In this document: in pieces, positions 6,356 through 36,161 of the stretch | Layout of the letters: each line of letters opens with the position of its first letter | Position numbering within the stretch: position 1 is the stretch's first letter | Origin: Firmicutes bacterium UBA5559 | GTDB taxonomy: Bacteria; Bacillota; Clostridia; Peptostreptococcales; Anaerovoracaceae | Direction: 5' to 3' | Length of the DNA stretch: 64,000 bases | NCBI GenBank assembly: GCA_002425705.1 | Contig: DIMT01000001.1 | Location: forward strand, 46,221 to 110,220 | Position numbers and translations under genes: made by a program | The notes under the pieces: generated by a model | Seen by the model: the letters and a program-made list of their open reading frames with translations, nothing else | The model's database searches: none | Told to the model about the DNA's origin: nothing

Positions 6356-6362
6356 CCTCCTG
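6329..6362 (-). terminator. Rho-independent terminator for the minus-strand small CxxC gene
   Basis: Stem CAGGAGGT/ACCTCCTG (6342..6362). On the minus strand it is followed by TTTTTCCTTTTTT. It lies inside the 3' end of the flavin reductase CDS. Confidence 0.6.
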
Positions 6363-6431
6363 CCTTCTTATATCTGAGTGCTGATTTCATGGAAACGATG
6401 GTCTGCCCGGGGATCGATGGGCGGAACCTGG

Positions 6432-20979: not shown

Positions 20980-23900
20980 ATGAAAAATCTGATCGAAAGC
21001 AACATCCATTGGAATAAAATAGGCAGCCATCCCAAGGAATCCTATTCCTTTCATCTGGGGAAGGCAAAAATGTCAAAGGACGGTTCAGTTCTGACCCTGG
21101 CGGTGGAACTGAATTTTGTTGTGCCCTATGAGGACATCCTGCGGATCAAGGCCCTGATCATCAACCAGGTTCCGGATTTGGTCAAGGTGGATTTCCAGTT
21201 TCATTACCGGGAAATGATCCTGAGACCAGAGGAGATCCTCCGACACTACATCGAGTATATGATTGAAGAAGTCAACGGGGAATATGCCCCCCTGACCAAG
21301 ACCATCCTGCCGGAGGAATATGCTTTGGAGGGAGACAGCCTCACCATTTACGCCCTGGGAAACCTGGCGGTGGAACAGCTCAATCACCGGGTTTCACCCC
21401 TGTTCCGTCAGCTTTTGGAAGCCAACATGGGACTTTCTCTCCAGGTTCGGTTCGAAAACCACGATGATTCCTATTCCAAAGTTTCCAGTCAGAAAAAAGC
21501 CCTGACAGAAACCGAAGCCCGGGAAATGGCCCAGGTTCAGAAATCAGCGGTAGCTGCTCCGAAGAAATCGCCAGAACCCCAGGAAAAGAGTTGGGGGAAA
21601 AAACGATCCTCCAAGGAAGAACCGGCCTGCGGCAGCCAGATTATGGGGAAACCCTTTGCCGGAGACCCGGATCCCATGCAGAGCCTGAACACCGAATCAG
21701 GAACGGTGGTCATCGAAGGGATCTTGTTCCGAAAGGAATCCCGTACCATCCGCAGCGACAAGAAGCTGGTAACCCTGTTGGTCACCGACAAGACCACCTC
21801 CCTTTGCCTCAAGGCCTTTGTATCTCCCGGTAAATGGGAGGAGATCGACGAACTGCTCAACCCGGGGGACGGCATCCGGGTCCGGGGCATCGTGGAATGG
21901 GACACCTATGAAAATCAGTTGGTGGTTATGGTGAAGGACATTCAGAAGCACCAGAAGGAAGCCAAAACCGACAAGGCAGAGAAAAAACGGGTGGAGCTCC
22001 ATGCCCACACCAAGATGAGCGCCATGGACGGCCTCAATGAAGTGTCGGAGCTGATCCGGACCGCAGCAGCCTGGGGACATCCGGCGGTAGCCATCACCGA
22101 CCACGGGGTAGTACAAGCCTTTCCGGAAGCGCCCAAGGTGGTGAAAAAGAACAAGCTGGACATCAAGGTGATCTACGGTCTGGAAGGTTACCTGCTGGAC
22201 GACCGGGATAAGATCGGAGAAGACGGAACCATTGATTACAAGTCCTCCGGTACCTATCACGTCATCATTTTAGCCCAAAACCAGGAGGGGCTCCGAAACC
22301 TGTACAAGCTGGTTTCCATCTCCCACCTGGATTATTTCTATAAAAAGCCCAGGATTCCCAAATCTGTCCTCGCCGCCCACCGGGAAGGACTGATCATCGG
22401 CTCTGCCTGCGAGGCGGGGGAAGTATATCAGGCGGTTCGGAAGGGAAACCCGGATATTCAGGAAATCGTTGACTTTTATGACTACCTGGAAATCCAACCC
22501 ATCATCAACAATCAATTCCTCATCGACAACGGCTCGGTGAAGGATGAAGAGGAGCTTCGGGACATCAACCGGCGGATCGTCCGTCTGGCAGAGGATGCCG
22601 GAAAACTGGTTGCCGCTACCTGCGATTCCCATTACACCACCCCGGAGGAAGCTTTGTACCGGAAAATCCTCATGGCGGGGCAGGGATACAAGGACATCGA
22701 AGGGGACAAAGGACTGTACCTTCGGACCACCGACGAAATGCTGGAGGAGTTCAGTTATCTGGGCCGGGATGCTGCCTGGCAGGTGGTAGTAGAAAATACC
22801 AATCGGATCGCCGAAATGGTGGAGGACGTCAAACCCATTGCTTCCGGTAAGTTCCCTCCCAAGATCGACCGGGCCGAGGAAATCCTCCGGGAAACCTGCA
22901 TGAAGCGGGCCTGGGAGATGTACGGCAATCCCCTGCCCTATGACGTGGAAAACCGTCTGGAGCGGGAGCTCAATTCCATTATCAACAACGGCTATGCGGT
23001 GATGTACGTTTCCGCTGAGATGCTGGTGAAAAAATCTCTGGAGGACGGTTATCTGGTCGGTTCCCGGGGTTCCGTCGGTTCCTCCTTTGCCGCCACTATG
23101 GCCGGCATCACCGAGGTAAACCCCCTGCCTCCCCACTATATCTGCGGCGGATGCAAGCATTTTGAATGGGGAGACAACAACGAATACGACTGCGGAGTGG
23201 ATATGCCGGAAAAGCATTGCCCGGACTGCGGACTGCTGATGAAACGGGAAGGCTTTGACATCCCCTTTGAAGTTTTTTTAGGCTTCGAAGGAGACAAGGA
23301 GCCGGATATCGACTTGAACTTCGCCGGCGAATATCAGAGCACCGCCCACAAATACGTGGAAGAAATCTTCGGACGGGAAAATGTTTACCGGGCCGGGACC
23401 ATTGGCACCATTGCCAGCAAGACGGCCTATGGCTTTGTTCGCAAGTATTTTGAAGAGCGGGAGCAGAACATCAATAAGTGGGAAATCGAACGGCTGACCG
23501 AATGCTGCACCGGAGTCCGGCGTACCACAGGACAGCATCCCGGTGGAATCATCATTGTCCCCAGGGGTCACGAAATCTATGAATTCTGTCCGGTTCAGCG
23601 ACCGGCCAACGACATGAATACGGACATCATCACCACCCACTTTGACTATCATTCCATCGATGAAAACCTGCTGAAGCTGGATATTCTGGGCCACGACGTG
23701 CCCTCCATGATCCGCCAGCTCCAGGATATGACGGGAGTGGATCCCCTGACCTTGCCTTTAAATGACGATAAGGTCAAGGGCCTGTTCCTCGGCATCAGTT
23801 CCCTGGATATCCAGGAAGAAAACTATAAATATCGCCACGGCAGCTTTGGTATTCCTGAGTTTGGCACCAAGTTCGTTCGGCAGATGCTGGATGACACCAG

Positions 23901-24723
23901 ACCCAGCCGCTTCGGGGACCTGGTCCGGATTTCCGGATTTTCCCACGGTACCGATGTGTGGCTGAACAACGCCCAGGAATTTATCCGAAGCGGAGTAGCC
24001 ACCATGAAGGACGCCATCTCCACCCGGGATGACATTATGAATTATCTGATTCACAAGGGGCTGCCCAACAGCAACGCCTTCAAGATCATGGAAAACGTCC
24101 GGAAGGGGAAGGGCCTGAGCGAAAAGGACATGGAGCTGATGCGGGAGCACGACGTGCCGGAATGGTACATCGATTCCTGCAACAAGATCAAGTACATGTT
24201 TCCCCGGGCCCATGCGGTGGCCTACGTTATGATGTCCTACCGGATCGCTTATTACAAGGTCTATTATCCCAGGGAGTTTTATGCCACTACTTTCACCACG
24301 AAAGTAAATGACTTCGATGCAGAGACTATACTCAAGGGTCCCAAGGCGATTTTGGAAAAGATCGAGTCCATCGAGAACAAGGGGAAGAACGCCACGAAAA
24401 AAGAAGAAGACAGTGTGACGGTCATGGAACTGGCCTATGAAATGCTCTGCCGGGGGTACGACTTTAAGGAAGCATCTTTGGAGCATTCAGACCCGGTCAA
24501 ATTTAAAGTTCTGGAGGATAAGGTGCTGCTGCCCCTGATGGCGCTTACCGGAGTAGGGGAAACCGCAGCCCGGCTGATTGCCGAAGAGCACCGAAAACGG
24601 CCATTCCATTCGGTGGAAGAGATTCAAAAACGGGCACGGGCCAACAAAACCGCCATCGAGGCACTGAAGCAGCATGGTGTATTGACCGGATTGCCGGAAA
24701 CGGATCAGCTCTGTCTCTTTTAG
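20980..24723 (+). CDS. polC: DNA polymerase III alpha subunit, PolC type, apparently lacking the inserted 3'-5' exonuclease domain
   Basis: 1247 aa. It has the PolC N-domains, an OB fold, a PHP domain (VELHAHTKMSAMDG, ITDHGVVQAFPEA, GLEGYL, YHVIILAQNQEGLRNLYKLVS), the Zn finger CGGC...CPDC, and the polymerase core (GSRGSVGSSF, QHPGGIIIVP, KLDILGHD). See the findings for the missing exonuclease insert. Confidence 0.9.
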   Translation: MKNLIESNIHWNKIGSHPKESYSFHLGKAKMSKDGSVLTLAVELNFVVPYEDILRIKALIINQVPDLVKVDFQFHYREMILRPEEILRHYIEYMIEEVNGEYAPLTKTILPEEYALEGDSLTIYALGNLAVEQLNHRVSPLFRQLLEANMGLSLQVRFENHDDSYSKVSSQKKALTETEAREMAQVQKSAVAAPKKSPEPQEKSWGKKRSSKEEPACGSQIMGKPFAGDPDPMQSLNTESGTVVIEGILFRKESRTIRSDKKLVTLLVTDKTTSLCLKAFVSPGKWEEIDELLNPGDGIRVRGIVEWDTYENQLVVMVKDIQKHQKEAKTDKAEKKRVELHAHTKMSAMDGLNEVSELIRTAAAWGHPAVAITDHGVVQAFPEAPKVVKKNKLDIKVIYGLEGYLLDDRDKIGEDGTIDYKSSGTYHVIILAQNQEGLRNLYKLVSISHLDYFYKKPRIPKSVLAAHREGLIIGSACEAGEVYQAVRKGNPDIQEIVDFYDYLEIQPIINNQFLIDNGSVKDEEELRDINRRIVRLAEDAGKLVAATCDSHYTTPEEALYRKILMAGQGYKDIEGDKGLYLRTTDEMLEEFSYLGRDAAWQVVVENTNRIAEMVEDVKPIASGKFPPKIDRAEEILRETCMKRAWEMYGNPLPYDVENRLERELNSIINNGYAVMYVSAEMLVKKSLEDGYLVGSRGSVGSSFAATMAGITEVNPLPPHYICGGCKHFEWGDNNEYDCGVDMPEKHCPDCGLLMKREGFDIPFEVFLGFEGDKEPDIDLNFAGEYQSTAHKYVEEIFGRENVYRAGTIGTIASKTAYGFVRKYFEEREQNINKWEIERLTECCTGVRRTTGQHPGGIIIVPRGHEIYEFCPVQRPANDMNTDIITTHFDYHSIDENLLKLDILGHDVPSMIRQLQDMTGVDPLTLPLNDDKVKGLFLGISSLDIQEENYKYRHGSFGIPEFGTKFVRQMLDDTRPSRFGDLVRISGFSHGTDVWLNNAQEFIRSGVATMKDAISTRDDIMNYLIHKGLPNSNAFKIMENVRKGKGLSEKDMELMREHDVPEWYIDSCNKIKYMFPRAHAVAYVMMSYRIAYYKVYYPREFYATTFTTKVNDFDAETILKGPKAILEKIESIENKGKNATKKEEDSVTVMELAYEMLCRGYDFKEASLEHSDPVKFKVLEDKVLLPLMALTGVGETAARLIAEEHRKRPFHSVEEIQKRARANKTAIEALKQHGVLTGLPETDQLCLF

Positions 24724-24762
24724 TCCTATAATTCTCTTTTTGACACTTTTAATGTCTTTTAA

Positions 24763-24791
24763 TTGACATTTTTTGCTTTATTATCTACAAT
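24763..24791 (+). promoter_or_regulatory. SigA-type promoter of the SARP-like regulator gene
   Basis: TTGACA (24763-68), 17 nt spacer, TACAAT (24786-91). Confidence 0.6.
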
Positions 24792-24813
24792 GGGAGCAAG
24801 GGAGGGAATGCCC

Positions 24814-26049
24814 ATGCAAGAGGAATACAAAATCACCTTTTTTAAAGAATTTTCCCTGAGCCAGGGAGGCCATCTGATTTTAGAAGGCCCACTGAAAAGC
24901 AGTAAGGTTTTTCAACTGCTTCAGTATTTTCTTGCCCATCGTTCCAAATCCTTTACGAAAGAGCACCTGATCGAGCTCCTTTACGGGGATGAATTTGTGG
25001 ATAATCCCACCAATGCGCTGAAAATCATCGTTCACCGGCTCCGGAAGCAGATCCTGTCCCTGGGACTGCCGGAAATGGAATACATCGTCAACTACAATGG
25101 AAAATACGGATGGAATCCGGAAATCCCCTGTCAGGTCGACATTGAGATCTTTGAACATACCATGAAGCGGGCCCTCCATCCCAATGCACCGGAGGAGGAG
25201 TCCCTTAAGCTGATGCTGGAGGCCATCCACCTGTATCAGGGGCCTTTCCTGGGCAACAGCCTGACGGAAAGCTGGGTGATTCCCATGCGGGTCCGGTACG
25301 AGGAAGCCTATAAACACTTGATAGGTCGAGCCTGCCAGCTGATTCGGAAGAAGGAGGACTTCATCCTGCTTCACTATATCGCGTCCCATGGACTGGAAAT
25401 CTATCCGATGGATGAGGATTTCTCCCGGGAAAAGATATTTGCTTTGCATCAATTGGGCAAGACCAAGGAAGCCATCGGGGAGTATAACCGGATCGTGGAC
25501 CTGATTTTTAACGAATACGGCGTCAGCCCGTCGGATGAACTGCAGTCCCTTTACGATAAGGTAGCGGCAACGACCCAGAAAAGCGCCATCAATGTGGATG
25601 AAGTTAAAAATTTCCTGGAAGAAGGGGAAGATGATGATGGGGCTTATTTCACCAATTATCAAAACTTTGCAGACAGCTATCGTTTTTTAGTTAGAGGGCT
25701 GGAGCGAAGCGGTCTTTCCGCATTCCTGATGCTCTGCACCATGGTCAACAAACAAGGAAAGCTGCTGGATGAGGAACTCCAGCTGGCCCACGCTTCCGAT
25801 GCGCTGAAGACAGCCTCCAAGGCTTCTTTAAGAAGAGGAGACCTTTATACCCGGTACAGCCCTTCCCAGTATCTCTATCTGCTGATCGGCATCAACCAGG
25901 AAAACTGCAGCATCGTTTTTGACCGTATCGAAAAGCATTTCCGGAAGGAGTTCCGGGGAAATCAGGTCAACCTGAAATACAAGGTGGTTTCTGCAGCCGA
26001 CATTAAAAAGCTCTTTGGCGACAAAAGGGGCCAACAGGATGCAAAATAA
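24814..26049 (+). CDS. SARP-like transcriptional regulator: OmpR-type winged helix + BTAD + degenerate GGDEF-like C-terminal domain
   Basis: ATG 24814 lies 7 nt after AGGGAGGGA. The N-terminus (FLAHRSKSFTKEHLIELLYGDEFVDNPTNALKIIVHRLRKQI) is a Trans_reg_C-like wHTH. The middle (DIEIFEH...LYQGPFL...ALHQLGKTKEAIGEYNRIVDLIFNEYGVSPSDELQSLYDKV) matches BTAD. The C-terminal part (about 145 aa) follows the GGDEF fold pattern, with RRGD-LYTRY-SPSQY where RxxD-x5-GGDEF would be. Confidence 0.7.
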   Translation: MQEEYKITFFKEFSLSQGGHLILEGPLKSSKVFQLLQYFLAHRSKSFTKEHLIELLYGDEFVDNPTNALKIIVHRLRKQILSLGLPEMEYIVNYNGKYGWNPEIPCQVDIEIFEHTMKRALHPNAPEEESLKLMLEAIHLYQGPFLGNSLTESWVIPMRVRYEEAYKHLIGRACQLIRKKEDFILLHYIASHGLEIYPMDEDFSREKIFALHQLGKTKEAIGEYNRIVDLIFNEYGVSPSDELQSLYDKVAATTQKSAINVDEVKNFLEEGEDDDGAYFTNYQNFADSYRFLVRGLERSGLSAFLMLCTMVNKQGKLLDEELQLAHASDALKTASKASLRRGDLYTRYSPSQYLYLLIGINQENCSIVFDRIEKHFRKEFRGNQVNLKYKVVSAADIKKLFGDKRGQQDAK

Positions 26050-26083
26050 ACCGGATTCTGATTCAATATGACACAATTTCGAC

Positions 26084-26111
26084 AAAACGCCTCGAAAAGG
26101 GGCGTTTTTTT
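26084..26111 (+). terminator. Rho-independent terminator after the regulator gene
   Basis: AAAACGCCTC-GAAAA-GGGGCGTTTT stem followed by a T-run. Confidence 0.85.
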
Positions 26112-26129
26112 ATTGCGCAAAACCCGCAG

Positions 26130-26186
26130 GTTTCAACATGCTACTGGTTTTTTGAAACTGGCAGTGAAACTAAAACGGCATATGAT
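26130..26186 (+). promoter_or_regulatory. Candidate activator-dependent promoter of adhesin A (TGAAACT direct repeats plus -10)
   Basis: TGAAACT (26153-59), N5, TGAAACT (26165-71), N9, TATGAT (26181-86). An inverted copy GGTTTCA lies at 26130-36. The same geometry recurs at 29392..29425. Confidence 0.55.
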
Positions 26187-26265
26187 AGTTAAACAAAAGG
26201 GATGAGTTTCTCCCAGTCACGAAACAGAGACATACTTGATTTTATGAGAAGGAAGGAGAGGTATT

Positions 26266-28554
26266 ATGAGTAGTAAAAGAAAAAGCTGGATGAGGGTGGT
26301 GGCCTTCACCATAATGCTCACCCTGGTCTTGATGACCGGAGCCACTGGGCTGGTAGTAGCCGAAGAGGGAGGCTTCGAAGGACCGCCTCTGGAGGAGAAT
26401 GGAATTATCCAGTCGTCGGGGTCGGAAGATCCATCCGGTGATGACGGTTCTGGTAAAATGGATGAGGGATTGCCTGAGGGAGAAGGGCAAACAAGAACCA
26501 TGAGTTTTTTTAAACCGGAAAAACCACCCAAGCTAGAGATTAAATTAGAAAAGTGGGTTAATCCGGATAAGGTTTTCTTTCAAGATGACATGGTGACTTT
26601 TTTCTTCAAGGTTACAAATAAGAGTGAAAGAAGCCTTAGGAATGTGGTTCTTGTGGATGAAGATTTAGGCCTTGTAATTACGATTGGTGAATTAAGTAAA
26701 GAGAGGTGGCATGGATCGGTCTACACAACAGAGGTGGCTGTTAAGCTGGATCCTGACAAATGGGATGGGAATAAGTACATCAATGAGGCGTCAGTATCCG
26801 GCACAGCAAGGGTAGCGGACAATGATATTATTGTATCAGATTCAGCCTGGGCAAAAGTAGAATTGAAACCGATCATTGGATTCGCCAAAGAAGCGGATCG
26901 TGAAACTGTTTTCTTTAAGGACTCCACGGTAACCTATACCTTTACGGTAACAAATATGAGTAATAAGCCAATTGCGGATGTGATGATTATTGATCCTGCT
27001 ATTGGCCTTGAAATTGATGCAGGCTCATTGGGAATTCATGGAAAGGGCAAAACCTTCACTACAAAAGTAGCGGTTGATCTAAGTGAGAATTTATGGGACG
27101 GCAATTCATTTAACAATACTGCCACGGTTCAGGGAACCGTTCCCTGGGGCGAAGGGACCAGATCAGTCAGTGCCGATGCTTCGTATACCGTGAAGTATCA
27201 GGCTCCTTTGACCTTAGAAAAGACGGTTGATAAAAGCACAGTTAATTTCAAGGACGAAAAGGTAACTTATACATTCAAGGTTAAAAATAACCTTTGGTGG
27301 GATCTCCAAAATGTAAAGGTTTATGATGAAACCATCGATGCAATTCTGGATTTCGGCAAAGTACGAAAGGGACAATGGGAAACTAGGACATTTGCATTTG
27401 ATTTGACAAATGCAGAATGGGATGGGGATCAATTCATCAACACTGCAAGAGTGGAAGCTCCTTTTATGAGAGGAGATACACCGGTAACTCTTTCGGCAGT
27501 TGATACGGCTGCTGTAACTTACGTACCACCCATGACCCTGGAAAAATCAGTAGATCCTGGAACTGTATACTCACAAGATGGAATTGTAAACTATACCTTC
27601 AAAGTGTGGAATAATCTTTCGGACAATACGATTAAGAATGTAGTTCTGACGGATACTCTCTTGGATTTAACGGTGAATGCCGGGGACATCAAAGCAAAGA
27701 GTAAATGGAATAAAGGCTATTATACCACCACTGTTGCTATTGACTTGTCTTTAATCCCTGAAGATTCCTGGGATGGCAATCAATTGATTAATGAAGCTAC
27801 AGCCATGGGCTGTTACGAAAAAATCAAATGGGCTCCGAGAGGAAACGAGGGAGACTTCCAAACGATGAAACATTGGTCTCCTCCTACGGAATGCATCACG
27901 TTGACAGCAGTGGACACGGCTACCCTGATCTATGATCCGACCACATTGACGATTAAAAAAGATGTTCCCAACGTAACCGATTCTGCAGCAGCCTTTGATG
28001 TTCTGATTTCGTGGGAAGAAGAATGGGTCTATGATGAGGATTCAGGAGACAATGAAATCCCCCAATACCGTACCATGGTGATGAATACCACCACGAAGTC
28101 TATCCAGGGTGTAATTTCGGAATTGGAGCCCTTTGTCATGGATGCGGTTCCTGGAGTTTTGTACACAGTGGCAGAAACTACAAAAGCAGGCTATACCACA
28201 TCAGAAACCTCTTTGCAGATTACCCTGGAGCCAGGTGAAGATGGAGTGATCACCTTTGTGAACACCAAGGATGTCATAGAGGAAGAAAGCTCTGGCGGTG
28301 GCGGCACCAATCAAGGTGGCAGCAGTGGTGGCGGTGGAGATACGGATACCAATACCATAGCTACGGTTCCTGACGGTCAGGTACCCTTAGCCCAGGATCC
28401 TGTTACTGTTGAAACATTAGCCGATTTACCCATTCCGCTAGCTGATGTTCCTCAAACCGGAAACAATGCATTGCTGAATCTCTGGTGGATTTTGCTAGCT
28501 TTGTCCGGATTTGGAATCCTGGTTGTCGTAAATAGGAAACCGGAAAAAATTTAA
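26266..28554 (+). CDS. Sortase-anchored surface protein A (four DUF11/CARDB-like repeats, a Cna-B/prealbumin-like domain, and a VPQTG sorting signal)
   Basis: Signal peptide MSSKRKSWMRVVAFTIMLTLVLMTGATGLVVA. Four modules of about 105 aa each end in WDG(N/D)xxxNxAxV. A Gly-rich linker follows. The C-terminus is PIPLADVPQTG, then a hydrophobic span, then RKPEK. The gene is AT-rich compared with its flanks. Confidence 0.85.
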   Translation: MSSKRKSWMRVVAFTIMLTLVLMTGATGLVVAEEGGFEGPPLEENGIIQSSGSEDPSGDDGSGKMDEGLPEGEGQTRTMSFFKPEKPPKLEIKLEKWVNPDKVFFQDDMVTFFFKVTNKSERSLRNVVLVDEDLGLVITIGELSKERWHGSVYTTEVAVKLDPDKWDGNKYINEASVSGTARVADNDIIVSDSAWAKVELKPIIGFAKEADRETVFFKDSTVTYTFTVTNMSNKPIADVMIIDPAIGLEIDAGSLGIHGKGKTFTTKVAVDLSENLWDGNSFNNTATVQGTVPWGEGTRSVSADASYTVKYQAPLTLEKTVDKSTVNFKDEKVTYTFKVKNNLWWDLQNVKVYDETIDAILDFGKVRKGQWETRTFAFDLTNAEWDGDQFINTARVEAPFMRGDTPVTLSAVDTAAVTYVPPMTLEKSVDPGTVYSQDGIVNYTFKVWNNLSDNTIKNVVLTDTLLDLTVNAGDIKAKSKWNKGYYTTTVAIDLSLIPEDSWDGNQLINEATAMGCYEKIKWAPRGNEGDFQTMKHWSPPTECITLTAVDTATLIYDPTTLTIKKDVPNVTDSAAAFDVLISWEEEWVYDEDSGDNEIPQYRTMVMNTTTKSIQGVISELEPFVMDAVPGVLYTVAETTKAGYTTSETSLQITLEPGEDGVITFVNTKDVIEEESSGGGGTNQGGSSGGGGDTDTNTIATVPDGQVPLAQDPVTVETLADLPIPLADVPQTGNNALLNLWWILLALSGFGILVVVNRKPEKI

Positions 28555-28562
28555 AGACTAAG

Positions 28563-28584
28563 GGGGCTGCCATCCGGCGGCCCC
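28563..28584 (+). promoter_or_regulatory. GC-rich intercistronic stem-loop between adhesin A and its sortase
   Basis: GGGGCTGCC-ATCC-GGCGGCCCC, 9 bp with one G-U pair. The T-tail is weak (TGTTTC), so it looks like an attenuator or stability element rather than a full terminator. Confidence 0.5.
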
Positions 28585-28606
28585 TGTTTCAAAGGAGGTG
28601 GTTACG

Positions 28607-29356
28607 ATGAAGAGGATCTGGATGATCCGCCTGGGAATTGTGTTGATTCTTCTAGCCTGTATTCTCTTGCTTTATTCCTTGTTTGGACCGGGCAACAACG
28701 GGAAGGAAGAGTTCCAGACATCTTTGCAGGAAGAGGAGCTGCCAATATCGGCCGATGGGGAGCAGCCCCTCTACCCGGCTCCTTCTGTAACCATTGACTT
28801 TGATGGGTTACTGGCTATCAACGATGAGACAACCAGTTGGATCTGGATTCCCGATTCGCCTATCACTTACCCGGTGATGCAGGGGCTGGACAATCAGAAG
28901 TACCTGACCCGCTCCTATAAGGGGACTTATGACCGGAATGGCAGTGTATTCATGGATTACCGATGTCAGCCGGATTACAGCAGCAGCCACACCATTCTCT
29001 TTGGCCATAATATGCTGACGGAAGATATTTTCGGCACACTGGAGCGCTATAAGGACCTTGAATACCTCAACAGACATTCTCTGATCTATATCCTGAAACC
29101 GGAGGAATACCAAGTGTACGAAGTCTTCTCCATTCACGGGACGGATGCTACCGGAGAAACCTACCGGGTGAATTTTGAAACGCCAGACCACTTTCGGCAG
29201 TACCTGGAAGAAATGAAGGAGCTATCCATCCATCCTTTGGGGCCTGATCCGGAATCGAAAGACCAGATACTGACCCTTTCTACTTGTACTTCTCACGGAA
29301 ATAAGAACGATCGTTTCGTTGTCCAGGCCGTTTTGCAGGAAACTGTAAAACTTTAA
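28607..29356 (+). CDS. srtB: Class B sortase
   Basis: ATG 28607 lies 8 nt after AGGAGG. It has an N-terminal TM anchor, TILFGHNM (catalytic His), LTLSTCTSHG (catalytic Cys in TLSTC), and DRFVVQA (Arg). Confidence 0.85.
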   Translation: MKRIWMIRLGIVLILLACILLLYSLFGPGNNGKEEFQTSLQEEELPISADGEQPLYPAPSVTIDFDGLLAINDETTSWIWIPDSPITYPVMQGLDNQKYLTRSYKGTYDRNGSVFMDYRCQPDYSSSHTILFGHNMLTEDIFGTLERYKDLEYLNRHSLIYILKPEEYQVYEVFSIHGTDATGETYRVNFETPDHFRQYLEEMKELSIHPLGPDPESKDQILTLSTCTSHGNKNDRFVVQAVLQETVKL

Positions 29357-29391
29357 AATAGAGTTCAAAATGTTTCATAATTCTGAGATGC

Positions 29392-29425
29392 TGAAACCTG
29401 TATTGAAACCTGAAACCGTTATAGT
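29392..29425 (+). promoter_or_regulatory. Candidate activator-dependent promoter of the small-protein/adhesin B operon (TGAAACC repeats plus -10)
   Basis: TGAAACC (29392-98), N5, TGAAACC (29404-10), N9 containing a third TGAAACC (29411-17), then TATAGT (29420-25). Confidence 0.55.
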
Positions 29426-29487
29426 AAAAATAAGAAGAAAACAAGTTGTTTGAAATGAACGGAAATTCAACGAAGGAGGTGGTAAGT

Positions 29488-29991
29488 TTGCAGCCAAGCA
29501 ATATCCGGATGTTTTCCCGGAATATTATTTGTAACTGCGTCAACCAATGTGGACCTAATGGCATACAAGGAGAGCTGCACCACCTTTACTCCGAAGAACC
29601 GATCCGATACCGGGACGCATTTGAAATGCTGATCCAGATGGATAAGTTCTATGATAACCTGAATTTTCCGATGGCTTCCACCGAAACCCGATCTTTTATC
29701 AAAAGGAAGCCCAGTCAAAATAGGAAAGAGATGATAAAAATGGAGCAGGATGAAAAACTATTAAAGGTTAAGGGCAGCAAGGGCACATTCCTGATACAGG
29801 TACAATACCGACAGAACGCCACCTGGCAAGGCAAGGTGGTCTGGGCAGAAGAAAACAAGACACAATATTTCAGAAGCGCACTGGAACTAATGAAACTGAT
29901 TGATGGAGCTCTGAACAAGGGCAACGAGGAAGCGACAATAGAATTCGAAGAAAGTGATAATCCAAAAGATAAGAAATACGCTACCAGCTAA
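29488..29991 (+). CDS. Hypothetical cytoplasmic protein with internal duplication, unknown function
   Basis: The ORF track gives 29446..29991. The best SD is GAAGGAGGTG, which favours TTG 29488, with ATG 29509 as an alternative. There is no signal peptide. Two halves share the motif [YF]R[DS]A[FL]E[ML][LM]xx[MI]D (EPIRYRDAFEMLIQMD versus TQYFRSALELMKLID). Confidence 0.5.
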   Translation: MQPSNIRMFSRNIICNCVNQCGPNGIQGELHHLYSEEPIRYRDAFEMLIQMDKFYDNLNFPMASTETRSFIKRKPSQNRKEMIKMEQDEKLLKVKGSKGTFLIQVQYRQNATWQGKVVWAEENKTQYFRSALELMKLIDGALNKGNEEATIEFEESDNPKDKKYATS

Positions 29992-30031
29992 AAGGGAGGT
30001 TATCAAGAGCGTATGGGAAAGGAGAATGGAG

Positions 30032-31831
30032 ATGAACATTCAGACAAAGAGGTGGGCAAGGCCCCTGGCGCTTTTCATAGCGCTGACAATGGTGATGATG
30101 TACTCCTTTGGGGGAGTGGTGTTTGCATCAATTAATGATGTTAGAGTTCATTATCACGGACCAAGTGATGATGGAGTTGTAGTTGTAATTACGACTGTAT
30201 CATCAGAAGGTGCTATTGATCAAACCTTTACAGCAGAAGCTAAGAGACATAAAAAGAGTAGTCATTACGATGGAAAATTTTCTCCAAGCATTGACCAAGT
30301 TTTATCGAATGGCGATAAACTCATTGATGAAGGTGTAGTTACAAGAGCATACACAACAATAAATGGTATTTACACAGAATTAACAGTTGATCATAGTTCA
30401 GCTATCGGAAATAACTCGGCAAATATTAAGGTTGGACCACCACCAACTGCAAAAGTTTATAACCTAATGATAACCAAGACGGTAGACAAGCCAGTAGTTC
30501 CCCTTGATGGCGCTGTTAAGTTTACTATTACTGTTACAAATATCGGGAATACATTAGTGAGCGGCGTAGTTGTAACAGACGAAATTCCTGCAGGCTTATT
30601 GATAACGGCCACTTATTCAGCAGTTGGAACATTTGCAGGCGATGTCTGGACAATCGGTGATTTAGCGAGTGGTCAACAAGTAACATTAGAGATTGATGCC
30701 ATTACTACTGATGTAGATGAGATCACCAATACTGCCACTGTAAGTTTTGATGGTGATGATGTTGATGAGGATGATAACACAGCAAGTGCGACAGTAGATG
30801 TTTTAGTACCATATGACTTATCTCTTACAAAGTCAGTAAATCCTGGATCTGTAGGTATAAGTGAAGAAGCTCTTTTCACTATTAAAGTAGAGAACAAGGG
30901 ATTCTATGAAGCAACTAATGTTGTTGTCAAGGATGTATGGCCAGATGGGCTTGAATTTATCGGTGCAACATCCAGCGATGCTATACAGTTCAATGCTGAG
31001 GATATGACATGGACCCTTGGAAGTTTAGCTCCTGGAGCAACTAAAACAATTACTTTATCAGGTATTTCAGCAGTAGCCGATGATTATACGAATACTGCAT
31101 CTGTTACCTTTAGCGGAATCGACCAGAATCCAAATGATAACTCTGATACAGCAACGCTTAAAGTGCTTCTGGAAAGAGACCTTGGAATCACAAAGGTTGC
31201 AGCACCTACCAATATTCTGCTTAATGAAAGCACAGTATTTACAGTGACTATAACAAATAATGGTACTGAAACTATTAATAATATTTTCGTTGAAGATGTT
31301 ATGGAAGCTGGATTAAGTATTTCGGCAATCGGCTCAGATGATTTTAAAGATGGAATATGGGATGTCGGAACTCTGGAATCCGGAGAAAGCAAGATTTTAA
31401 CAATAGCCGCAATTGGAACAACAGTTGGTTCCCTTCAGAATCAGGTTGAGATTGTGACTCTGGGTGATGGCAATAACGAAGTAATTGAATATGTTCCATT
31501 TGAAGATGATAACCAGTCTAACAACTCTGAAAAAGCTACCGTAACAGTCTCCGCAGGAGGCGGTGGAGGTGGCGGCGGCGGTGGAACCGGTGGAGGCGGT
31601 GGTGGTGGAACCACTATCCAGGAAACTACTCCTCCATTAACCAATATCCCCGACGGAGAAACTCCGTTAGTAGAAGCCCCGGAAGTAATGCTTGAAGAGC
31701 AGCCCATTCCGCTGGCAGACGTTCCCCAGACTGGTGACAACACCAACATCTGGTTGCTGCTGGCCCTGATGATGGGATCCGGAGCAGGAATCGTCCTCCT
31801 GGGAAGGCGAAAAGAAACAGTTGAAAAGTAA
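30032..31831 (+). CDS. Sortase-anchored surface protein B (three DUF11 repeats, a poly-Gly linker, and a VPQTG sorting signal)
   Basis: ATG 30032 lies 7 nt after GGAG. Signal peptide MNIQTKRWARPLALFIALTMVMMYSFGGVVFA. The canonical DUF11 repeat pattern is present (L.ITKTVDKP...F.ITVTN.G...V.V.D..P.GL......G...WT.G.L..G....L......NTA.V). The linker is G10-T-G7. The C-terminus is PIPLADVPQTG, then a hydrophobic span, then RRKE. Confidence 0.85.
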   Translation: MNIQTKRWARPLALFIALTMVMMYSFGGVVFASINDVRVHYHGPSDDGVVVVITTVSSEGAIDQTFTAEAKRHKKSSHYDGKFSPSIDQVLSNGDKLIDEGVVTRAYTTINGIYTELTVDHSSAIGNNSANIKVGPPPTAKVYNLMITKTVDKPVVPLDGAVKFTITVTNIGNTLVSGVVVTDEIPAGLLITATYSAVGTFAGDVWTIGDLASGQQVTLEIDAITTDVDEITNTATVSFDGDDVDEDDNTASATVDVLVPYDLSLTKSVNPGSVGISEEALFTIKVENKGFYEATNVVVKDVWPDGLEFIGATSSDAIQFNAEDMTWTLGSLAPGATKTITLSGISAVADDYTNTASVTFSGIDQNPNDNSDTATLKVLLERDLGITKVAAPTNILLNESTVFTVTITNNGTETINNIFVEDVMEAGLSISAIGSDDFKDGIWDVGTLESGESKILTIAAIGTTVGSLQNQVEIVTLGDGNNEVIEYVPFEDDNQSNNSEKATVTVSAGGGGGGGGGGTGGGGGGGTTIQETTPPLTNIPDGETPLVEAPEVMLEEQPIPLADVPQTGDNTNIWLLLALMMGSGAGIVLLGRRKETVEK

Positions 31832-31858
31832 GTACGGTAAAGTATAATTAAAGATGTG

Positions 31859-31890
31859 TAAGGGTTACCTTCGGGTAACCCTTATTTATT
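31859..31890 (+). terminator. Rho-independent terminator/attenuator between adhesin B and sortase 2
   Basis: 11-bp stem TAAGGGTTACC/GGTAACCCTTA with a TTCG loop, followed by TTTATT. Confidence 0.75.
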
Positions 31891-31962
31891 AGAAATTGTG
31901 TCATTTGGCCTACATTGCCAAAAGACCGCCAACTGACAGACCTGCTTACAGAGGTGGTATTT

Positions 31963-32727
31963 GTGAAAAAAATTATTTTAATCGTATTAATTTGCGTATT
32001 TATCGGCTCCGGCCTGATGCTGGCGGGAACGCTGCTGGAGTACAAACAGGGGCAGGATCTTTATGAGGCTGCTGCGGAGCAGGTTATTCGTCCGGAGAAG
32101 CCTGAGGCCGAAGAGGAGCCGGATGGCCCGGCTGCTCCAGTTCCCCCTGCCATTAATTTTGAGTTGTTATCGTCCATCAGCCCCGATTCGGTGGGTTGGA
32201 TCTGGATACCCGATTCGGAGATCAGTTACCCCTTGGTGCAGGGCCGGGACAATCAGTTTTATTTGACCCGGACCTATGATGGGGGGCACAACAAGCTGGG
32301 AAGCATCTTTCTGGATTACCGGATTCCGGGGGACTTTAGCGGCAGAAACACCATCATCTACGGGCACAACATGAAAAGCGATGCCATGTTCGGCACCCTG
32401 GAAAAATTCCGGGATCAGACTTTTACCGATGCCCGGCCCCAGTTCTATATCCTCCGGGAGGAGGGGGTCTATCGATATCAGATTTTTTCCGCTTATGTCA
32501 CCGATGCCTTGAGCGATACCTACACCTACCAGTTTGGGAATGATGCCGCTTATGGCAAGTATCTGGAAAAGATTACAAATCTGTCAGACATTACACCGCC
32601 TCAATCCGATATCACACCGCCGAAAGGCCCGGACATTGGCACCCCGATCGTCACCCTGTCCACCTGTACCAGTACCGGAAGGCAGCTGGATCGGTTCGTG
32701 GTTCACGGTTTTCTGATTTCGGAGTAG
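31963..32727 (+). CDS. srtB: Class B sortase (second copy)
   Basis: GTG 31963 follows GAGGTGG. It has a TM anchor, TIIYGHNM, VTLSTCTSTG, and DRFVVHG. It is a paralog of the gene at 28607..29356. Confidence 0.85.
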   Translation: MKKIILIVLICVFIGSGLMLAGTLLEYKQGQDLYEAAAEQVIRPEKPEAEEEPDGPAAPVPPAINFELLSSISPDSVGWIWIPDSEISYPLVQGRDNQFYLTRTYDGGHNKLGSIFLDYRIPGDFSGRNTIIYGHNMKSDAMFGTLEKFRDQTFTDARPQFYILREEGVYRYQIFSAYVTDALSDTYTYQFGNDAAYGKYLEKITNLSDITPPQSDITPPKGPDIGTPIVTLSTCTSTGRQLDRFVVHGFLISE

Positions 32728-32790
32728 CAAAGATTTTAATTTTGTGCTATGATAAAGGACAAAAGTGAAAAAATCATACAGGAGGAAAGC

Positions 32791-34101
32791 ATGCAGGAAA
32801 ACAGGATATGGAGTCCGGAAGAAACCCTGGACAGGGAGCAGTTCCGGGACATACAAAGCAAACGATTGAAAGAAATGGTTCAGCGGGTCTATGATTCCGT
32901 GCCCCATTACAAAAAGAAATTTGACACGATGGGTCTGTCTCCGGCGGATATTCAGTCTGTGGATGACCTGTCCAAACTTCCCTTTACCACCAAGCTCGAC
33001 TTTCGGGACAATTACCCCTACGGGTTGTTTGCTGTACCCCAGAAGCAGGTGGTGAGAATCCATGCTTCCTCCGGAACCACCGGAAAGCCGACAGTAGTTG
33101 GTTATACAAAAAACGATATGGAAATGTGGAAGGAAATGATCGCCAGGCTGGTCACCATGGCCGGCGTCACCGATGAAGATGTGGCACAGATTTCCTTCGG
33201 ATACGGATTATTTACAGGGGCCTTCGGTCTCCACCAGGGCCTGGAGCACGTGGGAGCCACAGTGATTCCCATGTCCAGCGGCAATACTCGTAAACAGATC
33301 ATGGTCATGCAAGACTTCGGCACCACGGCTCTGATCAGCACCCCTTCCTATGCCCTCCATATGGCGGAAATCGCCAAAGAAATGGGCATCGACCCGAAGA
33401 AGGACCTGAAACTGAAGTGGGGACTATTTGGGGGCGAAGGATCCACCGAAGCCATGCGCCGGGAAATCAATGAAGCCTGGGGTTTGTTTGCCACGGAAAA
33501 TTATGGCATGAGCGAGCTGATCGGGCCGGGAGTTTCCGGTGAATGCCTGGCCCTCAAAGGGATGCACATCAACGAGGACCATTTCTTTCCGGAAATCATC
33601 GACCCGGAAACCGGTGAAGTGCTGCCGCCGGGATCCGTGGGAGAGTTGGTCATTACGACTCTTTCCAAAGAAGCCCTGCCCATCATCCGGTACCGGACCA
33701 GCGACATTACCTCTTTGCATTATGAAAAATGTGATTGCGGCAGGACTACCGTCCGAATGGCAAAAATTTCCGGCCGTTCCAACGATATGCTGATTCTGGG
33801 GGGAGTTAATGTATTCCCCTCCCAAATCGAAGAAGTCCTGTTCAACGTGGACGGTATCGGGCCCCATTATCAGATTAAGGTTTACAAGAAAGGCCATCTG
33901 GATCGGATTGAAGTGGACGTGGAACTGGTCAACGCCGATCTGCTGGATTCCTTCAGCCAGATCGAAAACCTGAACCAGACCATCCGGCAGCGACTCCGAA
34001 CCGTGCTGGGCATCGATGCGAAAGTCAATATCATGCAGCCAAGGACCCTGCAGCGTTTCGAAGGGAAAGCCAAGCGGGTCATCGATCTGAGGGAGGAATA
34101 A
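32791..34101 (+). CDS. paaK: Phenylacetate-CoA ligase family (aryl-acetate-CoA ligase), copy 1
   Basis: ATG 32791 follows GGAGG. HASSGTTGKPTVVGYT (AMP-binding P-loop), YGMSELIGPGV, RYRTSD, and GRSNDMLILGGVNVFPSQIE are present. Confidence 0.85.
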   Translation: MQENRIWSPEETLDREQFRDIQSKRLKEMVQRVYDSVPHYKKKFDTMGLSPADIQSVDDLSKLPFTTKLDFRDNYPYGLFAVPQKQVVRIHASSGTTGKPTVVGYTKNDMEMWKEMIARLVTMAGVTDEDVAQISFGYGLFTGAFGLHQGLEHVGATVIPMSSGNTRKQIMVMQDFGTTALISTPSYALHMAEIAKEMGIDPKKDLKLKWGLFGGEGSTEAMRREINEAWGLFATENYGMSELIGPGVSGECLALKGMHINEDHFFPEIIDPETGEVLPPGSVGELVITTLSKEALPIIRYRTSDITSLHYEKCDCGRTTVRMAKISGRSNDMLILGGVNVFPSQIEEVLFNVDGIGPHYQIKVYKKGHLDRIEVDVELVNADLLDSFSQIENLNQTIRQRLRTVLGIDAKVNIMQPRTLQRFEGKAKRVIDLREE

Positions 34102-34103
34102 AA

Positions 34104-34520
34104 ATGGGAATCAAACAATTATCGATTTTTATTGCCAATGAAGCAGGGACCCTGGCCGATGTTACCCGGATCTTCCGGGAACATGAAATCGACATACGGG
34201 CCATCTCCGTTTCCGATACCGTGGATTACGGAATCCTGCGGGTGGTGGTCAGCGAGCCGGAACGGGCCGTGGAAGAACTGGCTAAAGAGGGAATCGTATC
34301 CAAACTCAGCGAGGTCCTGGCCGTAGATCCGGAAGACCGACGGGGCAGCTTGAATGACATCTTCACGCTGCTGGGAGACAACGGCATCAACATCGACTAT
34401 ATCTATTCTTTTCTGGTTCGGGAGGACGGGGCCCAGCTTTTTGTCATAAAAGTGACAGATCAGCAGAAGGCCCAGGAACTGTTGATGGCAAATGGTGTGC
34501 GAATCATAAAAAATATCTGA
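34104..34520 (+). CDS. ACT domain-containing protein (tandem ACT), copy 1
   Basis: 138 aa. LSIFIANEAGTLADVTRIFREHEIDIRAISV plus a second ACT-like half. It lies 3 nt after paaK copy 1. Confidence 0.75.
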   Translation: MGIKQLSIFIANEAGTLADVTRIFREHEIDIRAISVSDTVDYGILRVVVSEPERAVEELAKEGIVSKLSEVLAVDPEDRRGSLNDIFTLLGDNGINIDYIYSFLVREDGAQLFVIKVTDQQKAQELLMANGVRIIKNI

Positions 34521-34527
34521 TTTTTTG

Positions 34528-34556
34528 TTGACAATAACAAAAAATACCGGTAGAAT
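34528..34556 (+). promoter_or_regulatory. Consensus SigA promoter driving the T-box leader
   Basis: TTGACA (34528-33), 17 nt spacer, TAGAAT (34551-56). Confidence 0.8.
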
Positions 34557-34569
34557 AGGAATAACTTCA

Positions 34570-34812
34570 TAGCAAAAGCGATGACAGGGTAAAGTAAGAT
34601 GATCCGGCGGATTACAGAGAATCGGCAGTGCTGAGAGCCGACAGAAGCAGACATCCCAAGTTCCCCCTTGAGCTGACCGGCTGAACCGATAGTAGGCCGT
34701 TCCGGGTTCTCCCGTCACAGAGATAAGGATTCATGGAGTCCTGAGTGGCCGTAAGGCAATAAGAGTGGTACCGCGGGCTTCCCGTCTCTTAGGAGATTGG
34801 AAGCCTTTTTTT
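34570..34812 (+). promoter_or_regulatory. T-box riboswitch leader (probable Phe/UUC specifier) with terminator
   Basis: K-turn AGCGATGA (34577-84) pairs with TGAGCT (34669-74). AGTA is at 34593-96 and the AG bulge AGAGA at 34616-20. The distal loop is AGTGCTGAGA. The T-box sequence AGAGTGGTACCGCG is at 34762-75. The terminator is GGCTTCC...GGAAGCC plus T7 (34776-34812). Confidence 0.85.
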
Positions 34813-34862
34813 GTTCGGGAACCGGCGTGGCCGGAAATTGTTGGAATAAAGGAGAATGAACC

Positions 34863-36161
34863 ATGATTTGGAATGAGCCGAAAGAATGTATGAGCAGGGA
34901 TGAGCGGACGGCAGAGCAGAGCCAGCGTCTGAAAGAGACAGTGAACCGGGTCTATCATAATGTGGCCTTTTATCGGAAAAAGATGCAGGAACTGGGCCTG
35001 GAACCGGGAGACATCAAAGGCATCGAAGACATCCATAAGCTGCCCTTTACTACCAAGAATGATCTGCGGGAAAACTACCCCTTCGGATTGTTTGCTGTGC
35101 CCAAAAGCGAAATCGTCCGGGTCCACGCCTCCTCCGGCACCACCGGAAAGCCCATCGTGGTAGGATACACCCGAAAAGACATCGACCTGTTCTCTGAAGT
35201 AGTAGCCAGAGCCTATTGCTGCGCTGGTGCTACCAAAGACGACATCGTCCAGATCGCCTATGGCTATGGCCTATTCACCGGTGGCCTGGGGATGCATTAC
35301 GGTGCAGAAAAGCTGGGGGCAGCAGTGGTTCCCATCTCTGGAGGCAATACGGAAAAGCAGCTGGCCCTGATGCAGGATTTCGGCAGTACGATTCTGGCCT
35401 GCACCCCCTCCTATGCGGCCTTCCTTTCAGAAGCCATCGAAGAAGCGGGAATCGATAAAAACCAGCTTCAGCTGAAAGCCGGTATCTTCGGGGCAGAACC
35501 CTGGAGCAACGAGATGAGGGCCAAGATCGAAGAGGGCTTAGGCATCACCGCCTATGACATCTACGGACTCAGTGAGATCATCGGACCGGGCGTCTCCTGC
35601 AGCTGTTATGTTCAGGAGGGACTCCACGTGGCGGAGGATCATTTCTATCCAGAGATCCTGGATCCGGAAACCCTGAAGGCAGTCACCCCGGGCACCACCG
35701 GCGAACTGGTCTTCACCACCATTACCAAGGAAGGCATGCCCCTGCTCCGGTACCGGACCCGGGATCTGGCCAGCCTCAATTACGATGCCTGCGCTTGCGG
35801 GCGGACCAATGTGCGGATGTCCAAGATTCAGGGACGTTCCGACGATATGCTCATTATTCGGGGGGTCAATGTATTCCCCTCCCAGGTGGAAAGCGCTCTC
35901 CTGGAAATCGAAGAAGCCAAACCCCATTACATGCTGATCGTAGACCGGGTGGGAACCATGGACACCCTGGAGATTCAGGTTGAAATCGATGATAGATATT
36001 TCAGCGATGAAATGGTAGAATTAAATAAAGTGCGGCAGAAAATCAAACACAAGGTGGAAAGTATTCTGGGAATCAGCGTCAACATCAACCTGGTGGAGCA
36101 CAAAACCATTGCAAGAAGCGAAGGAAAAGCCAAGAGAGTCATCGATAGGCGAAAGATATAG
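34863..36161 (+). CDS. paaK: Phenylacetate-CoA ligase family, copy 2 (T-box controlled)
   Basis: 432 aa with HASSGTTGKPIVVGYT, YGLSEIIGPGV, RYRTRD, and GRSDDMLIIRGVNVFPSQVE. By eye it is about half identical to copy 1. Confidence 0.85.
   Translation: MIWNEPKECMSRDERTAEQSQRLKETVNRVYHNVAFYRKKMQELGLEPGDIKGIEDIHKLPFTTKNDLRENYPFGLFAVPKSEIVRVHASSGTTGKPIVVGYTRKDIDLFSEVVARAYCCAGATKDDIVQIAYGYGLFTGGLGMHYGAEKLGAAVVPISGGNTEKQLALMQDFGSTILACTPSYAAFLSEAIEEAGIDKNQLQLKAGIFGAEPWSNEMRAKIEEGLGITAYDIYGLSEIIGPGVSCSCYVQEGLHVAEDHFYPEILDPETLKAVTPGTTGELVFTTITKEGMPLLRYRTRDLASLNYDACACGRTNVRMSKIQGRSDDMLIIRGVNVFPSQVESALLEIEEAKPHYMLIVDRVGTMDTLEIQVEIDDRYFSDEMVELNKVRQKIKHKVESILGISVNINLVEHKTIARSEGKAKRVIDRRKI

Follow-up and report, generated by a model that had tools for sequence, protein, structure and literature searches.

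Direct heptamer repeats in place of a -35 element at two adhesin-sortase operons of a clostridial genome, next to a gene for a predicted SARP-type regulator

How are two neighbouring operons for sortase-anchored adhesins switched on when their promoters offer no usable -35 element? The question arises in a 64-kb stretch of contig DIMT01000001.1 from Firmicutes bacterium UBA5559, an uncultured anaerobe of the class Clostridia. This whole stretch, 64,000 nt long, is the DNA that was analysed; it is called the window below, coordinates are window positions, and features lie on the + strand unless stated otherwise. Ahead of each operon, two direct TGAAACY repeats stand over the place of the -35 element. 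Upstream of both, the gene at 24814-26049 encodes a protein with the DNA-binding region of a Streptomyces antibiotic regulatory protein (SARP). We propose that two sigma-A promoters that depend on an activator, P1 and P2, have their cores at 26153-26186 and 29392-29425, with the product of this neighbouring SARP-type gene as the predicted binder, and we put the probability of this reading at about 0.75.

The two sites share one layout. At site 1, a first TGAAACT (26153-26159) is followed after 5 nt by a second (26165-26171) and, 9 nt further on, by the -10 hexamer TATGAT (26181-26186). Site 2 has TGAAACC at 29392-29398 and 29404-29410, followed by TATAGT at 29420-29425. At both sites the spacer is 5 nt, the repeat starts are 12 nt apart, the second repeat starts 16 nt before the -10 start, and the -10 element, of the form TAnnnT, begins 28 nt after the first repeat. 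An initial examination of the letters alone (the sequence-only reading) had described this arrangement and its identical spacing at the second site, and both descriptions hold. It had also seen an inverted copy of the heptamer upstream of site 1 (GGTTTCA on the + strand, so the copy itself is on the - strand). The copy is present, at 26129-26135 rather than 26130-26136, 17 nt upstream of repeat 1. Site 2 has an inverted copy too (- strand, 29371-29377; TGTTTCA on the + strand), with 14 nt between its GTTTCA and repeat 1, and a third TGAAACC (29411-29417) that abuts repeat 2 and occupies most of the 9-nt gap.

Allowing up to two mismatches, the composite pattern TGAAACY-N5-TGAAACY-N9-TAnnnT matches twice in the window against a mean of 0.04 in shuffled sequence, and none of 100 shuffles gave two matches. 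Both matches are intergenic and each precedes an adhesin/sortase operon. The sequence-only reading would have been weakened by copies at unrelated positions; in the 64 kb, the pattern stands at these two promoter positions and nowhere else. The repeat pair by itself, with at most one mismatch, occurs three times (0.15 expected), and lone TGAAACY heptamers are not enriched in the window (26 against 19.6 expected).

Could the likeness be chance, or a functionless relic of a duplicated adhesin-sortase cassette? The operons are indeed paralogous, each with a CLIPPER adhesin and a class B sortase. However, besides the shuffling result, the two intergenic regions show no alignment beyond the motif, and the paralogues are only distantly related (37% identity between the sortases, about 25% between the adhesins). 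The downstream genes are thus old paralogues, and the likeness of the sites is not the residue of a recent duplication. The layout is also kept where regulators are just 44% identical. The comparative data described below effectively refute this explanation, to which we give hardly any weight.

Neither site has a good -35 hexamer, as the sequence-only reading had noted for site 1, or a TGn extension: no hexamer 16-18 nt from the -10 element matches the consensus at more than four of six positions. Site 1 has the weak -35-like CTGGCA (4/6, 17 nt from the -10), which is not conserved in relatives. The repeats themselves were rejected as -35 elements because repeat 2 lies 9-10 nt and repeat 1 21-23 nt from the -10, both outside 16-18 nt. 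A scan candidate at site 2, TTGAAA-17-AAAAAT, was rejected because it is conserved neither at site 1 nor in relatives. The leaders of the two sites contain no riboswitch or known RNA.

Transcript evidence comes from assembled contigs of public sequencing runs, 11 of them RNA runs. Runs labelled 'METAGENOMIC RNA-Seq' (X5, X14, X15, X19, X11) were set aside; their depth is flat over genes and intergenic DNA alike, so they behave as DNA and carry no start-site information. RNA contigs over adhesin A begin between 26191 and 26206 (26191 in X25; 26195 in X26; 26204 in X30 and X34; 26205 in X24; 26206 in X27 and X31), which is 5-20 nt past the last base of TATGAT at 26186. Judged by these contig ends, transcription likely starts at about 26191-26193, which is compatible with TATGAT as the -10 element. 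Counted from there, repeat 1 covers about -40 to -32 and repeat 2 about -28 to -20, so the repeats do sit over the -35 position, as the sequence-only reading had put it. The X25 contig that starts at 26191 carries 16 untemplated A residues in front, which may be a library artefact or a boundary blurred by the genomic AAA at 26191-26193.

Contigs of regulator RNA stop at 26022-26074, and in 9 of the 11 RNA runs no contig covers 26075-26190, a stretch that DNA-like runs span without interruption. At 26084-26116, a 10-bp stem with a T-run behind it forms a strong intrinsic terminator for the regulator gene. At site 2, the X27 contig starts at 29444 with zero depth upstream, and RNA depth steps up from 0 to 36.6 in X34, from 1.5 to 41 in X24 and from 4-8 to 39-56 in X30 and X31. 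Depths of 12-56 in environmental RNA show both promoters to be well transcribed.

These data bear on whether the repeats activate or repress. The repeats might be an operator at which the SARP-like protein, or the small protein encoded first in the site 2 operon, represses an otherwise constitutive promoter from -40 to -20. Such a site would overlap the region that RNA polymerase needs, CTGGCA at 17 nt could act as the -35 element of site 1, and the inverted upstream copies could support looping. We consider an operator unlikely. Both promoters lack a usable -35 and a TGn extension and are nevertheless well expressed, which argues for activation rather than repression; the one weak -35-like hexamer is not conserved; the BTAD/SARP fold belongs to activators; and the box position is that of the activating afs box (PMC10936776).

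A different possibility is that TGAAAC is the -35 element of an alternative sigma factor of the extracytoplasmic function (ECF) type. SigW promoters of Bacillus subtilis read TGAAAC-N16-CGTA, and the first hexamer is identical to the core of the repeats. At neither site, however, does a CGT-type -10 element follow either repeat at 16-17 nt. What is conserved downstream is TAnnnT, with 9 nt between it and the end of repeat 2 and 21 nt between it and the end of repeat 1. The element is also duplicated directly, and in other loci it becomes GTAAT, GAGAC or GAAAG in step with the recognition helix of the regulator. No sigma factor gene was found among the scanned neighbours of the sites (20980-36161). 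An ECF promoter is therefore very improbable here.

The repeat-binding protein is most probably the product of 24814-26049. The sequence-only reading had predicted an activator with an OmpR/SARP-type winged helix, and the adjacent gene encodes just such domains: Pfam finds PF00486 (Trans_reg_C; E 2.2e-9) and PF03704 (BTAD; E 1.8e-14). The OmpR-type winged helix is at the N-terminus with BTAD directly after it, and together they form a SARP domain of about residues 1-260. A profile search of the PDB with 17 homologues matched the SARP domain of AfsR (8hvr, E 1e-11 over residues 34-254) and EmbR (2fez), along with the PhoB-family entries 5dcm and 5dcl. A Foldseek search with the AlphaFold2 (AF2) model of the regulator, whose mean confidence (predicted local distance difference test, pLDDT) is 87, returned the AfsR initiation complex (8k60, E 4.8e-12, template modelling (TM) score 0.69-0.71) and again EmbR. 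No receiver domain (Response_reg) was found in the regulator, so it does not qualify as a two-component regulator of the OmpR/PhoB kind.

The C-terminal part resembles a diguanylate cyclase. Residues 298-388 match the GGDEF domain of a Thermotoga maritima enzyme (4urg) in the profile search (E 5e-4). Foldseek agrees (4urg, TM 0.61, plus many GGDEF structures with E < 1e-3), and PF00990 is annotated on some homologues of the regulator. In the alignment, RRGD-LYTRY-SPSQY of the regulator pairs with RRSD-VVARY-GGDEF of the T. maritima cyclase, which places an RxxD motif five residues upstream of the lost active-site motif. R342 and D345 of this RxxD are invariant in all 36 homologues, and GG(D/E)EF is present in none. 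Sequence and model together describe the regulator as a SARP domain fused to a GGDEF domain that is predicted to be catalytically dead with its inhibitory site intact.

The regulator gene has a promoter of its own, the sigma-A sequence TTGACA-17-TACAAT (24763-24791), which matches the consensus at 11 of 12 positions and has no TGAAAC repeats. Its mRNA contigs begin at 24800, 24803, 24806 and 24811, in keeping with the -10 at 24786-24791. The start codon was placed by the ribosome-binding site (RBS) GGGAGGG and by the homologue P0001, which like the product of the gene has 411 residues. With a strong, repeat-free promoter in front of its gene, the regulator is probably controlled at the post-translational level, by way of its GGDEF-like domain or of the small partner protein. 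In one near-identical strain (contig L199, 2924-4159, - strand), the regulator gene is 95% identical and is split into open reading frames (ORFs) of 212 and 184 amino acids; a frameshift, a pseudogene and an assembly error are alternative explanations.

The composite motif is conserved where little else around it is. Contigs with the same order of PolC, regulator, small ORF, CLIPPER adhesin and sortase were found for regulators 50-96% identical (L081, L082, L083, L207/208, L209, L204-206), and two contigs of Oscillospiraceae metagenome-assembled genomes with regulators 44-46% identical (L001, L002) were compared as well. In all of these relatives (44-96%), the regulator gene is immediately followed by TGAAACY-N5-TGAAACY-N9-TAnnnT, and the DNA around the motif does not align. 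Substitutions among them are confined to the spacers; the first repeat is unchanged, and TAnnnT is kept at the same register in nine of nine lineages. The site usually stands before the small ORF in these relatives, so that site 2 is the ancestral arrangement and site 1 with its adhesin A/sortase cassette is extra.

The same constraint is visible over short distances. Between -45 and +44 of site 1, near-identical strains (L199, L204) differ at 14 positions, and none of these falls in the repeats, the -10 element or the inverted copy. By our own hypergeometric estimate, the probability that all 14 would miss the motif parts is < 0.01. The inverted copy of site 1 is the same in L199 and L204 while adjacent bases differ, and the 14-nt inverted-copy spacing of site 2 recurs in L081, L082 and L207. 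The adhesin A leader of L199 departs from the window sequence about 50 nt past the start of repeat 1 (at about 26203).

We surveyed the regulator family in 80 loci from GTDB species representatives, with regulators 31-46% identical, in Oscillospiraceae, Christensenella, Blautia, Lachnospiraceae, Eubacterium ramulus and Coprococcus comes. In distant loci, the same layout appears downstream of the regulator with other heptamers. The period is 12 nt, with 11 nt only in L003 and L005. The gap between heptamer and -10 is 9 nt at the window sites and 10 nt in other clades, including L003 and L005, and the distance from first repeat to -10 is 28-29 nt across the family. These values suggest a tighter constraint on how far the -10 lies from the first repeat than on the repeat period (11 or 12 bp).

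The heptamer changes together with the protein. In 45 loci, the heptamer core corresponds one-to-one with the class of the recognition helix, and there is no cross-class exception. The core GAAAC goes with the helix NALKII.H; G[AT]GAC or TAGAC with [GNH][TV]LKN..Y (for example GTLKNL.Y); GTAAT with N[NS]LRV[TA].[HYF] (for example NNLRVT.H); GAAAG with [SG]SLNNT.F; and GTAAC with NTFRVT.H, NSLRAVIF or NSLKSLIH. By profile alignment, the most variable position of the helix aligns with T88 of AfsR and its invariant arginine with R92, both of which contact bases in the cryo-electron microscopy structure (PMC10936776). We then predicted motifs from the helix class, and about 20 further loci carried the expected one with a 12-nt period and 0-1 mismatches over both hexamers. 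There the -10 lies 17 nt after the second repeat and in none 18 nt, and the site is mostly just after the small ORF. A scan free of helix classes (pairs of [NGWRAN] plus TAnnnT) found 42 sense and 3 antisense matches within 6 kb downstream of the regulator, against 6 sense and 0 antisense matches upstream.

Metagenome contigs were also scanned, with the pattern GTTTCA-N14-17-TGAAACY-N5-TGAAACY. This gave at least 120 matches, mostly chance or coding repeats; among the matches listed, four have a -10 in register and three of these are the same locus in close relatives. The scan supplied strain variants and is no independent test of the association.

The survey also speaks to whether some other DNA-binding protein reads the repeats, with the SARP-like gene a mere neighbour. 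An OmpR/PhoB-type response regulator is one candidate reader, since direct repeats of 11-12 bp are also typical of that group, and the small partner protein, which is linked to the sites as tightly as the regulator is, would be another. Against this, the heptamer core follows the regulator's own recognition helix across the 45 loci, only the sense strand downstream of the regulator gene shows an enrichment of sites, and no DNA-binding fold is detectable in the small protein. One locus (L013) has a LytTR two-component pair after the regulator, but LytTR sites differ in architecture. We regard a different reader as improbable. The co-variation, the strand-specific enrichment and the activity of promoters without a -35 element lend indirect support to the inference that the SARP-type regulator binds the repeats and activates P1 and P2.

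The proposed mechanism follows that of AfsR. Two protomers, each with its SARP domain (winged helix and BTAD) on one of the repeats, would be arranged head to tail and replace -35 recognition through contacts with sigma region 4 and core RNA polymerase. P1 would then drive adhesin A and its sortase, and P2 the small partner protein, adhesin B and the second sortase. The pho box of PhoB/OmpR systems likewise stands in for the -35 element: it is built of direct repeats (7 conserved plus 4 spacer bases) on which winged-helix protomers line up head to tail and contact sigma region 4. The sites here share the direct-repeat replacement of the pho box, whereas the regulator lacks a receiver and has BTAD and a GGDEF-like domain instead.

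The closest described system is AfsR on the afs box of the afsS promoter of Streptomyces coelicolor (8hvr, 8k60, 8jke; PMC10936776, PMC11301090). On that box, which occupies -40 to -19, two AfsR SARP protomers bind next to each other; they hold sigma region 4, and their further contacts are with the beta flap, the beta' zinc-binding domain and the alpha C-terminal domain (PMC10936776). The likenesses are a winged helix plus BTAD that is the best PDB match by both sequence and fold; two direct repeats, which in AfsR are bound by a dimer; a box reaching from about -40 into the spacer; a poor or displaced -35; a 3' repeat near the -10; and an extra C-terminal signal domain. That domain is NOD plus TPR in AfsR and a degenerate GGDEF here. 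The repeats differ too (CGTT(T/C)ATCG there and TGAAACY here, with 11 bp and 8 nt against 12 bp and 9 nt). So does the setting, which is an antibiotic-regulator target in AfsR, and here a Clostridia host with adhesin/sortase operons and a conserved small partner gene.

Other SARPs share single features. The small SARPs ActII-ORF4 and DnrI (PMC10972967) also use heptamer repeats and are pathway-specific activators encoded beside their targets. They differ in having 4-nt spacers (an 11-bp unit) where the spacers here are 5 nt and in lacking a sensor domain; the third copy at site 2, which abuts the second at a 7-bp step, is off the period. EmbR of Mycobacterium tuberculosis (2fez) and PimR of Streptomyces natalensis, a SARP-LAL protein (PMC3367932, PMC5930380), combine a SARP domain with a C-terminal signal-receiving module. 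The module is FHA in EmbR and guanylate-cyclase-like in PimR, the latter of the same fold class as GGDEF, and sensor module, phylum and target genes differ from those here. Outside actinomycetes, GSU1771 of Geobacter sulfurreducens is a SARP-type regulator whose loss alters how biofilms form as well as the expression of genes for electron transfer and for biofilms; unlike the regulator here, it has an N-terminal receiver and is reported to be mainly repressor-like, and the text consulted describes no repeat-type promoter (PMC10599522). Literature searches for a clostridial SARP/GGDEF regulator with sortases, pili or cyclic di-GMP (c-di-GMP) found no description. By its proposed function, the promoter is a class-II-like activator promoter of the SARP type, and the system differs from characterised SARPs in phylum, targets, sensor domain and partner protein.

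Several observations weigh against the proposed reading. SARP repeats are canonically 11 bp (or 22 bp) apart with the 3' repeat 8 bp from the -10 (PMC10936776), and the window sites miss this spacing, with a period of 12 bp instead of 11 and a gap of 9 nt instead of 8. The gap is off by one or two bases, its value varies with how the repeat unit is delimited, and PimR tolerates non-canonical 10-bp repeat units (PMC10972967). The third, abutting repeat and the inverted copies fall outside a simple two-protomer model. Together with GTTTCA at the fixed 14 nt, the third repeat marks one sub-clade (site 2, L081, L082, L207); the repeat is kept in L081, L082 and L207/208 and lacking from site 1, L083, L209, L001 and L002. 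The transcription start is taken from contig ends and not from raw reads. At site 2, some contig ends (29396, 29422) fall upstream of the predicted P2 start, probably because of branches in the assembly graph or read-through from P1. The co-variation of helix and heptamer is confounded with phylogeny. Lastly, the window yielded neither a c-di-GMP riboswitch nor any other feature linked to c-di-GMP.

The last point concerns the weakest step of the mechanism, in which the C-terminal GGDEF-like domain, its RxxD kept, would serve as signal input, perhaps for c-di-GMP. This ligand is plausible because the RxxD is invariant and because c-di-GMP-I riboswitches lie downstream in six related loci. Searches with Rfam and with a covariance model of our own found them downstream of the pair of regulator and small ORF in L001, L003, L004, L005, L010 and L065. 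They stand between this pair and the genes for surface proteins, at 6319-6402 and 6462-6545 in L001 and at 1689-1774 and 6485-6574 in L003, and are in tandem in L001 and L010. One L003 riboswitch comes immediately after a repeat-type promoter, which suggests double control by promoter and leader. Riboswitches for c-di-GMP are known to control such surface proteins in Clostridioides.

The small partner protein (29488-29991, 167 residues) is the first gene product of the site 2 operon, in which adhesin B comes only after this small conserved gene. It begins with TTG after the RBS AAGGAGG. The AF2 model (pLDDT 77) shows two beta-beta-beta-alpha units joined by a disordered linker. We found no Pfam or NCBIfam family match for the protein, and a fold search against the PDB returned nothing below E 0.5. 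Homologues of about 150-190 residues share the invariant motifs FP.AST..R.F and YRQNATWQG...FRS.LEL. In 66 of the 80 loci, one lies downstream of the regulator on the same strand, mostly directly after it. Linkage alone makes it likely that the protein is a cofactor or a feedback element, and in the mechanism it would act as one or the other. Shorter versions exist: those of L082 and L083 have only 70-73 residues, and L003 has, at 6233-6420 after its second repeat-type site, a mini-gene for the C-terminal half only (...NATWQGEVVW...FRSALELLKLIDSAL).

Surface proteins are frequent, not universal, companions of the regulator family. Within 8 kb downstream of the regulator, 19 of 63 loci have a sortase or LPXTG protein; upstream, none of 66 does. 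The pilus operon of Blautia producta DSM 2950 (L015), which encodes a VWA/SpaA tip pilin, a backbone pilin and two sortases, has a predicted site TGTAATG-N5-CGTAATG (L015 position 11833) in front of it. Large surface proteins with VWA, Cna_B, SpaA or Listeria-Bacteroides repeats follow in L003, L004, L005, L010 and L048, and unrelated genes are downstream in L013, L036 and L065.

Taken further, the family data raise a broader possibility, which we offer tentatively and at somewhat less than even odds. The regulators may form an undescribed family of clostridial activators in which a SARP domain is joined to a dead GGDEF domain that would sense c-di-GMP through RxxD, assisted by a two-domain partner of new fold. 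Such a pair would be a local master switch for sortase-anchored adhesins and pili in Oscillospiraceae, Christensenellaceae and Lachnospiraceae (Blautia, Coprococcus, Eubacterium ramulus), with a recognition code that could be read from pairs of helix and heptamer. Sortase-dependent adhesins and pili govern attachment in biofilms and the gut, and how they are switched on is little understood. Regulators of this family are widespread among Clostridia of gut and sludge, and the pair of regulator and candidate operator recurs in at least 38 of the 80 loci, in many genera and including the cultured Blautia producta DSM 2950 and Christensenella. SARP-type activation has been solved structurally only at Streptomyces antibiotic genes; our data suggest that Clostridia use it as well, with another sensor module. 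The correspondence of helix classes and heptamer cores offers a basis for specificity swaps.

The genes from PolC (20980-24723) to the second sortase all lie on the + strand. Adhesin A (26266-28554) has a signal peptide, CLIPPER_2/CLIPPER (DUF7507/DUF11) domains and a doubled LPXTG anchor, and is followed by the first class B sortase (28598-29356; Pfam Sortase, TIGR03064 E 1e-45). Adhesin B (30026-31831) has three CLIPPER/DUF11 domains and an LPXTG anchor, again doubled; the second class B sortase is at 31915-32727. CLIPPER and CLIPPER_2, the current names of DUF11 and DUF7507, hold intramolecular isopeptide bonds (PMC12617251).

The adhesins vary among strains. Adhesin A, which the sequence-only reading had placed downstream of site 1, is missing from some: in one contig of run X15, positions 26199 and 28594 are joined (3-nt overlap) and the whole gene is gone. 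On contig L204 (regulator 96% identical), which lacks adhesin A, site 1 directly precedes the sortase gene. In place of the centre of adhesin B (30126-31571), all DNA and RNA runs compared have about 1345 unlike bases; this centre is a hypervariable surface-protein segment between conserved ends.

Beyond the operons, a full-length T-box leader (RF00230, 106.5 bits) lies at 34572-34792 (+), upstream of an AMP-binding, phenylacetate-CoA-ligase-like gene (34863-36161). Just ahead of the leader are a paralogous ligase (32749-34101) and an ACT-domain protein (34104-34520).

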